Positions 58,493-60,373 of a stretch of 64,000 nt of DNA are shown here, piece by piece. The first letter of the stretch is position 1. Each line of letters starts with the position of its first letter. Below the pieces are notes generated by a model. It ran no database searches, was not told the origin of the DNA, and saw only the letters and a list, made by a program, of their open reading frames with translations. Source of the DNA: Candidatus Bathyarchaeia archaeon. Its GTDB lineage: Archaea; Thermoproteota; CALKCG01; B24. The position numbers and the translations under genes were made by a program. The stretch covers positions 800,001 to 864,000 of the forward strand of contig JAVZJD010000001.1 in the NCBI GenBank assembly GCA_038870975.1. Reading direction: 5' to 3'.

Positions 58493-58657
58493 ATGAACAC
58501 TACAAACTTAGAATTTGAGAACCTTAGAAAGCTCCTACTACTGGATGTTGAAAAAGCCTTCGAAGAGTGTAACATGCTACTTTCAATTCAGCCGCATCCG
58601 GACGATACGGATATTGCAGCTGGAGGAACAATAGCCAAGCTTGCTAAGAAGGGATGT
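58493..58657 (+). pseudogene. PIG-L family (diacetylchitobiose-type) deacetylase, 5' fragment
   Basis: QPHPDD..IAAGGTIAKL motif, truncated at the mobile-element junction. Confidence 0.85.
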
Positions 58658-59855
58658 TCAGCAGTTTCTAAATAGTTAACTTTATTAACGCTTCAGAGTA
58701 TACTCTTTTTGTGGAGGTAGTCCTCGGCGTCCCATTCAGCTACGAGGCGAACAGCGAGGTTAGGAAGCTCTTAGAGGACTTTAGAGACATGGTGAACTTC
58801 TGCATAGACTTCTCCGTTAAGAGGAGGGTGACCTCTTATGCTAGGCTTAGGAGGGGCGTCTATGAGGAGTGGAAGAGGAGATGGGATTATTCCACGCACT
58901 TCTGCCACTCAGCGTGTAAGATAGCTTTAGCCATGATCAAAGGCTACAGGAGGAGGCATAGGGAGGGGAAGCCCGAAGCCAAGAAGCTCTTCATGCAACT
59001 CGACCCTCAGCTATACAAGTTCTACGGTGATGAGATTAGGATATCTGTTAAGCCCAGGAAGTTCCTCTTCATAAATTTGAAGTATGGCGAGTACCAGAAG
59101 AAGTTTATAGATGCATGGAAAGAGGGGAAGCTGAAGACTGGTGAAATAACGATAAACGAAACAAAGATAATCGTGCCTTTCAAGAAGGAAGTAGACATGT
59201 CGAATCCGAGCGATTGGATAGCAATAGACATCAACGAGGGCAACGTTACGGCTGTCAGCTCTAATCCACACGTCTTAAGGGTTGAAAGCAACCTGAGGAC
59301 TATCCATACAACCTACTTCAATATCATCAGGAGGATTCAAAAGCTGAAGAAATACAAGCCTAAGACCGCTGAAAAGCTGGTTAGGAAGTATTCTGGCAGA
59401 AGAAAACGCAAAGCTATGGATGAATGCCATAAAATTGCTAAGAAGATCGTAGACTTCACAAAGCAACATAATATGGGAATAATCATGGAAGACCTCAAAG
59501 GAATTAGAAAAAGGATCGACCGCACTAAAAACCTCAACCGTAGGCTACACTCGTGGAACTTTAGAAGACTACAATTCTACATCGAGTATAAGGCAAAGCT
59601 GAATGGTTTACCCGCAATTTACGTTAACCCGAAGGGAACCTCGAGCCTATGTCCGATATGTGGTGGAAGATTGGCATCGAATGGATATAGGCTTAAGAGA
59701 TGCGAATGCGGTTACGAAGAAGATAGGGATGTGATCGCATGCCTAAACATGCTCAGGATGAGGGGAGTTCCGTTGCCCCAGAAAGCCACTTATGAGGCTT
59801 TTAAAGCTGAGGTGGAACGGATAGTTATAAAATGTTAACTATCCGACAACGGAAC
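58656..59855 (+). mobile_element. Non-autonomous TnpB-only IS element (IS200/IS605 or IS607 superfamily)
   Basis: Bounded by GTTC...ATAGTTAAC and GTTAACTAT...GAAC; interrupts the deacetylase; no tnpA inside. Confidence 0.8.
58711..59838 (+). CDS. tnpB: RNA-guided endonuclease TnpB
   Basis: RuvC residues AIDINE, IIMEDL, DRD..A..N; Zn finger CPICG..CECG; YKA motif. Confidence 0.92.
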   Translation: MEVVLGVPFSYEANSEVRKLLEDFRDMVNFCIDFSVKRRVTSYARLRRGVYEEWKRRWDYSTHFCHSACKIALAMIKGYRRRHREGKPEAKKLFMQLDPQLYKFYGDEIRISVKPRKFLFINLKYGEYQKKFIDAWKEGKLKTGEITINETKIIVPFKKEVDMSNPSDWIAIDINEGNVTAVSSNPHVLRVESNLRTIHTTYFNIIRRIQKLKKYKPKTAEKLVRKYSGRRKRKAMDECHKIAKKIVDFTKQHNMGIIMEDLKGIRKRIDRTKNLNRRLHSWNFRRLQFYIEYKAKLNGLPAIYVNPKGTSSLCPICGGRLASNGYRLKRCECGYEEDRDVIACLNMLRMRGVPLPQKATYEAFKAEVERIVIKC

Positions 59856-59875
59856 AGGAGTCGGCTGCTAAAACA
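59762..59875 (+). ncRNA. Predicted TnpB omegaRNA (scaffold plus downstream guide)
   Basis: Hairpins GGGG/CCCC, AAAGCC/GGCTTT and CGGATAGTTA/TAACTATCCG; loop GTTCCGTTG is complementary to terminal CAACGGAAC; 5' boundary uncertain. Confidence 0.6.
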
Positions 59876-60373
59876 CTTGGGGTATCTGAACTTATATGGC
59901 TCAATTATAGAGATTCGGAGCTTGAACCGACGATAGAACTTAGAAACAAGCTTATAACGCTTATAAGAAGGTTTAGACCAGACATGGTATTAACGGTAGA
60001 TCCGTGGCTCCGATATGAAGCACACCCAGACCATAGAGCCACTGGAATAGCCACCTCTGAGGCTTTTCTCCTAAGCGGTTTTCCGAATATCAATCGCATA
60101 GACTTGGTAAACGGACTAGAGCCTCACACCCCTAAATTCATAGCCTACTATTGGACTGAGAAACCAAACATCTACGTCGACATCACCGAGTATATTGAAG
60201 TCAAATTCAAGGCTATTATGGCGCATGCATCTCAAACATCCAGTAGAATGGTAGGCATATTAAAAGCGGTTTTCAAACTTATGGGTGAAAAAGCAGGTTG
60301 TGAATACGCCGAAGCCTTTAAAGTTCTAGCATCTTCAGCTCTACATTGCAACATATATGCGTCAGAACTATAG
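59852..60373 (+). pseudogene. PIG-L family deacetylase, 3' fragment
   Basis: In-frame EQESAAKTLGV..WLNYRDSEL...DPW..YEAHPDH...VDIT..K..A..AHASQ. Confidence 0.85.

Follow-up and report, generated by a model that had tools for sequence, protein, structure and literature searches.

A probable tnpB-only element of the IS607 family in a PIG-L deacetylase gene of a hot-spring archaeon, with loss of 30 host codons

The IS607 family, which includes IS607, IS1535, ISC1904/ISC1926, and CboIStron, pairs a serine recombinase (TnpA_S) with TnpB, and an inverted domain order, with the HTH domain first, is typical of its transposases. IS607 elements are exchanged at a GG dinucleotide found at both termini and in the target, leaving no target duplication and producing scarless donor joints, and the transposases show minimal target specificity beyond GG. 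In the published elements, a TGGG TAM stands against a TCGG right-end tip, and TnpB-stimulated recombinational repair has been documented for the family. Here we analyzed a window of 64,000 nucleotides (positions 800001–864000 of contig 1 of genome G000) from a hot-spring archaeon, in which a PIG-L family deacetylase gene (window 58493–60373) is split by a 1.2-kb insert carrying only tnpB. Our analysis indicated that this insert is very probably a non-autonomous, tnpB-only member of the IS607 family, and that the accompanying loss of host DNA is a single secondary event outside the insertion mode of the family. The copy is classed as non-autonomous because it lacks tnpA; its ends, its GG cores, and a serine-recombinase partner resident in the same genome support the IS607 placement and account for ends that had appeared odd.

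Both halves of the host gene lie on the forward strand. The 5' fragment (58493–58653, including the left GG core) aligns with its orthologues up to ...LAKxGC, and the 3' fragment (59853–60373) is 79–83% identical to them. In the Pfam comparison, the N-terminal fragment (58493–58657) covers positions 1–25 of PF02585 and the C-terminal fragment (59852–60370) covers positions 58–128, so that about 32 profile positions between them are absent. Comparison with five intact orthologues, four from the same genus and one from the same family, revealed that 30 codons (90 nt) lying between ...G-C and E-Q-E-S-A-A-K in all five are missing in the window; the stretch found only in the orthologues reads Q-V-V-Y-V-T-V-T-D-G-G-A-G-T...S-I-R-R-R. 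A reading of the window made from its sequence only had proposed the replacement of about 30 codons without target duplication; the missing stretch is exactly 30 codons, and no duplication is visible around the insert. Once the GG cores are assigned, the gap in the host measures 95 nt and runs from the GG of AAG-AAG-GG to AACAGGAG. The earlier count was 90 rather than 95 because five bases, ATGT at the left junction and G at the right one, could belong to either host or element.

The interrupted allele is real and is no assembly artefact. Two metagenome contigs match the locus with 99.8% identity over 6.5 kb and have identical junctions. The exact TnpB protein is encoded in 11 conspecific contigs, all of which carry the same filled-and-deleted allele in the same neighborhood (PCNA, PIG-L', tnpB, 'PIG-L, and AglB). 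In the metagenome scan and the exact-protein look-ups, we found neither a conspecific empty allele nor an undeleted filled intermediate.

To define the ends of the element, we compared it with other copies recovered by DNA search from the same and related genomes; some of these are full-length, some have internal deletions, and some are reduced to an end. A common layout unites about 20 genomic and metagenomic copies: W-GGG is followed by a variable linker of 6 nt and the conserved left end, and the right end terminates in CAACGG. The linker is preceded by GGG or GG, usually with A or T before it, and is most often 6 nt long, the commonest spacing being GGG, 6 nt, and AGCAG. The window copy fits this layout exactly, with A-GGG as the target or TAM-like motif (58650–58653, forward strand), ATGTTC as the linker (58654–58659, forward strand, delimited by copy comparison), and then AGCAG. 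The GG cores, at 58652–58653 on the left and 59851–59852 on the right, also recur in about 20 copies. Linkers elsewhere read CTTGTC, TTTAAC, TCGTTC (copy L117), TAAGTC, and others; a sibling copy of more than 80% identity, from which the native linker could be read, was not present in the protein collection. In the orthologues, GGC or GGT TGT stands at the linker position, the host junction reading GG[C/T] TGT CAA, and the window reads AGGGATGT followed by TCAGCAG. Therefore, host and linker agree in the four nucleotides that follow GGG, and ATGT can be assigned to either because it is identical to the expected host bases.

The conserved left end (AGCAGTTTCTAAATAGTTAAC...) together with the region upstream of tnpB occupies 58660–58710 on the forward strand. 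Similarity to the sister-genome copies starts at 58658–58664, and the left-end similarity begins at AGCAGTTYCTRAATAGTTAAC, window position 58660. GTTAAC and ATTAAC motifs stand one helical turn apart in this end, and the left-end motif is common to the window element, an autonomous IS607 copy, and a MITE of the same genome. The gene tnpB (58711–59838, forward strand) starts with GTG and encodes 375 amino acids matching PF07282 (E 5e-17) and, weakly, PF01385. The right end with the putative omega-RNA scaffold (59745–59852, forward strand, set by the right-end alignment of copies) begins within the 3' part of tnpB and contains the hairpin GGATAGTTA...TAACTATCC; its last bases are CAACGG. Seventeen right-end copies align to exactly the same last base (...GGAACGGATAGTTATAAAATGTTAACTATCCGACAACGG, window position 59852), past which their flanks are unrelated.

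These boundaries change how the two junctions are read. The end sequences quoted in the sequence-only reading are present where it had placed them, and the match between them is real and conserved: ATAGTTAAC and GTTAACTAT form a motif around the palindrome GTTAAC that is part of the right-end hairpin. The motif is, however, subterminal rather than a terminal inverted repeat. GTTC and GAAC, which had been taken for the inverted ends of the element, are not its termini, because the linker varies among copies (one other copy reads TCGTTC) and the AAC on the right belongs to the host; GTTC is the tail of the variable linker, and GAAC is the last G of the element followed by host AAC. A role for the two as joining microhomologies falls with this, since they are not ends and unrelated bases stand at the right junction of other copies. 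We also considered whether GGRT upstream of the left end represents a host-derived distant TAM and rejected this, since the empty sites share only GG and the rest belongs to the element.

The autonomous partner that the sequence-only reading had suggested looking for is present on contig 2 of the same genome and is a serine-recombinase element. It spans about 1.85 kb (contig 2, ~680731–682577; L008, 769–2615) and encodes a TnpA_S of 208 amino acids and a TnpB of 393 amino acids. The TnpA ORF (contig 2, 680787–681410) lies upstream of tnpB and comprises a MerR-type HTH (MerR/HTH_17) at residues 6–53 and a Resolvase catalytic domain at residues 64–196 (PF00239 at 2e-22), the same arrangement of N-terminal MerR-like HTH and Resolvase domains followed by tnpB that is found in the described IS607 members. 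The tnpB of this element is the only other one in the genome that spans most of the query, and the two are 36% identical. The right ends of the autonomous and window copies are nevertheless identical over their final 46 nt, including the shared C-terminal residues EVERIVIKC, which suggests either an exchange of ends or selection for the binding sites of the resident transposase. On the reverse strand of contig 2 (713333–713553), a MITE of ~220 bp carries both ends of the family and, in comparison with G001, forms a clean GG insertion in a coding region.

The genome holds one intact TnpA_S and one decayed fragment. The latter is a remnant of a second IS607-type serine recombinase gene on contig 1 (507276–507536), 52% identical and with two in-frame stops. 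Separately, TnpB fragments and solitary right ends in both orientations were observed on contig 2 (775659–776271, 777792–777853, and 778615–778711); this cluster is probably made up of family members that have decayed or lie nested in one another.

Taken with the described systems, the locus resembles IS607 in having GG cores at both junctions, no target duplication, short subterminal repeats in place of a true terminal inverted repeat, and other copies that are scarless GG insertions. The W-GGG and ACGG of the window group are the counterparts of the published motifs, with W-GGG/CGG mirroring TGGG as TAM and TCGG as right end. The TnpB likewise shows the RuvC and zinc-finger (TNB) domains of the family, as judged by PF07282 and by sequence matches to Cas12f/TnpB. 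Unlike IS607, the window copy has neither tnpA nor a group I intron, and it is accompanied by a 90–95-nt host deletion, which is undescribed as an outcome of IS607 transposition. The tnpB-only elements of the IS200/IS605 family (IS1341 group) are similar in their TnpB gene, in a structured omega-RNA-like 3' end that reaches the boundary, and in the lack of target duplication. In contrast to them, the target here is GG, whereas theirs is a tetra- or pentanucleotide that abuts a hairpin in the left end, and the ends are common to a serine-recombinase element. A search of the genome (92.9% complete) for a Y1 (HUH) transposase (PF01797) was negative, although control genomes were positive. We therefore rejected membership in IS200/IS605, and the classical elements of that family, against which the sequence-only reading had measured the insert, were the wrong frame of reference: ends, GG cores, and partner are those of IS607.

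Analysis of TnpB indicated that Cas12f/TnpB structures match it by sequence, with the region of the catalytic RuvC Glu aligned. The Asp, Glu, and Asp residues and the CxxC...CxC motifs are present by eye, and the RuvC and zinc-finger motifs thus look intact. In the last ~110 nt of the element, two stems show compensatory changes across the 17 right-end copies: stem 1 changes from CCACC/GGUGG to CCAUC/GAUGG and CCCUC/GAGGG, and stem 2 from GGAUAGUUA/UAACUAUCC to ...GCUA/UAGC.... The two covarying stems fit a putative omega-RNA scaffold that would end at the tip of the right end; no Rfam family was matched by this end. From published IS607 TnpB biology, we infer that the putative guide would be the first ~16–20 nt of the 3' gene fragment (AACAGGAGTCGG...). 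With both GG cores and both ends intact and a source of TnpA_S present, the window copy is plausibly still mobilizable.

To see whether host DNA is lost regularly, we predicted empty sites as left flank, GG, and right flank and compared them with the sister genomes. Exact GG insertions were found for the autonomous copy against G003 and G001 (...GGTTGG followed by TTATTT...), for the MITE against G001, and for copy L052 of G002 against G000. Copies L033, L034, and L044 are clean to within 3–6 nt; they lie between genes or at gene ends, where identity is only ~80% and further indels occur close by. A loss of tens of bases was seen in none of the six other evaluable copies. Scarless GG insertion thus characterizes the family but not the window copy, which is 90–95 nt short in comparison with five orthologues. 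For L032 and L071, G000 has no orthologous region in which an empty site could be read, and the flanks of L032 are rearranged in other congeners. In a separate observation, the flanks of the full-length copy L041 (G002:C60), compared with contig 2 of G000 (574467–575078), showed ~110 nt inverted and ~500 nt absent, which may be an element-associated rearrangement.

Because the other copies insert cleanly at the standard target (W-GGG with a GG core), the loss in the window is read as a one-off, the very outcome that the sequence-only reading had named as contrary to its proposal. That reading had offered two routes, replacement of the intervening DNA at short homologies or a deletion after insertion; short homology may indeed have acted, but systematic replacement is unsupported.

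How the 95 nt were lost has to be read from the two host sites. The gap is flanked by the host AGGG preserved in the window and by a downstream host site, AG[A/G]G followed by AACAG. The downstream point in the orthologues reads CGT AG[A/G] G followed by AA CAG, with AGG in one of the five and AGA in three. Our best guess, inferred from these sequences, is a canonical insertion followed by a deletion between 8-nt direct repeats (AGGGATGT). TnpA_S would move the element in trans, with strand exchange at the GG dinucleotide, and once the element has left, TnpB with its omega-RNA would cut the empty site, which the W-GGG motif and the right flank define. Both junctions are canonical in form, with host AGGG, the 6-nt linker, and the left end on one side and the right end ...CAACGG followed by host DNA on the other. 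The insertion would have taken place at the downstream site, between ...CGT AGG and GAA CAG; with AGG as the Arg codon, this site would be an AGGG target. The host's own AGGGATGT (codons K-G-C) would thereby have gained a second copy, made up of host AGGG and linker ATGT, 95 nt further downstream, and a slippage or microhomology deletion between the two 8-nt repeats would have removed one repeat and the intervening DNA. The product would be exactly the present sequence with both ends intact, and the 4-nt identity of host and linker would be accounted for. If the ancestral downstream site had carried AGA, the core would be AG and the repeat would shrink to 5 nt, which would argue against this repeat route; it also counts against the route that the searches yielded neither an empty nor an undeleted conspecific allele and no sibling copy of more than 80% identity with ATGTTC as its linker.

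The proposed deletion resembles IS-associated adjacent deletions and repeat-mediated slippage deletions in that host DNA beside an intact end is lost and in that the endpoints allow the reconstruction of a short direct repeat (AGGGATGT). DDE transposases generate the classical adjacent deletions by intramolecular transposition, whereas here the putative agent is host slippage/MMEJ or the serine recombinase; the sequence fits both slippage and a recombinase-mediated deletion. In the recombinase version, the element would first have inserted canonically at one of the two GG sites; TnpA_S would then recombine the GG core of one end with the other host GG/TAM, which lies at a distance of 95 nt and in direct orientation, and so excise the host DNA between them as a small circle and leave a perfect junction. 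Both junctions do have the form left by the recombinase: each has a GG core, and the linker shows the modal 6-nt spacing. AGGG stands at the left host site and, in one orthologue, also at the right one, and the genome holds an intact TnpA_S of a family whose targets need little beyond GG. [quoted passage not shown] If true, it would be an activity so far undescribed for serine transposases, and such elements could erode adjoining genes while staying mobile.

Two canonical junctions could also have been obtained without unusual chemistry if insertions had occurred at both GG sites, on the same or a sister chromosome copy (for example, by a local hop), and homologous recombination had then taken place within the element. 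A TnpB break at the vacated site may have been the stimulus, in line with the recombinational repair documented in IS607. This would, however, require two independent events 95 nt apart in the same orientation, and neither a single-site allele nor the reciprocal duplication product occurs in any of the 11 conspecific contigs, which makes this explanation very improbable.

The insertion followed by deletion has a further counterpart in which the order is reversed, the 95 nt being lost first and the element inserting cleanly at the GG of the junction, or in which the left end is partly host, a random deletion having taken the host DNA together with the first 4 nt of this end. Under the reversed order, the predicted empty site, AAGAAGGG joined to AACAGGAG, would simply be the deleted gene, and a host-derived GGATGT is favored by the frame, in which GGA TGT encodes the conserved Gly-Cys. 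The apparent dispensability of the host gene in the genus, where the G003 lineage has independently lost ~350 nt of it, also speaks for this explanation. Nevertheless, an insertion exactly at an older deletion junction would be a coincidence of about 1 in 50–100, and a truncated left end would require chance to recreate W-GGG, the modal 6-nt spacing, and the GTTC of another copy's linker; we regard both variants together as quite unlikely. We retain canonical insertion followed by deletion between the direct repeats as the preferred reading.

The lesion in the G003 lineage (L017, G003:C14 ~1346–1500; metagenome locus L076) affects the same PIG-L gene and removes ~350 nt, comprising the promoter and the first ~95 codons, without leaving an element remnant. 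An 8-nt match to the tip of the right end (GATAACGG) at this locus was considered as a trace of a shared or hot-spot insertion and was dismissed, since alignment with the intergenic region of G001 identified it as native sequence; the lesion is a plain ~350-nt deletion unrelated to the element. Separately, a second, distant PIG-L paralogue (~33% identical, 231–240 aa) was observed in all five congeners. It was not found with the same query in G000, the assembly being 92.9% complete, and because of its absence from this search result, G000 may be without any intact PIG-L family gene.

The main value of the analysis is a correction, in that archaeal TnpB-only elements are easily filed under IS200/IS605. 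The element in the window is an ordinary passenger of the IS607 family. The loss of host DNA is a single event in a dispensable-looking gene, with no sign of a new insertion mechanism. Together, the autonomous copy, the tnpB-only copy, the MITEs, and the empty sites form a natural set for an archaeal IS607 group, useful for defining its TAM, its linker, and the boundaries of its omega-RNA.
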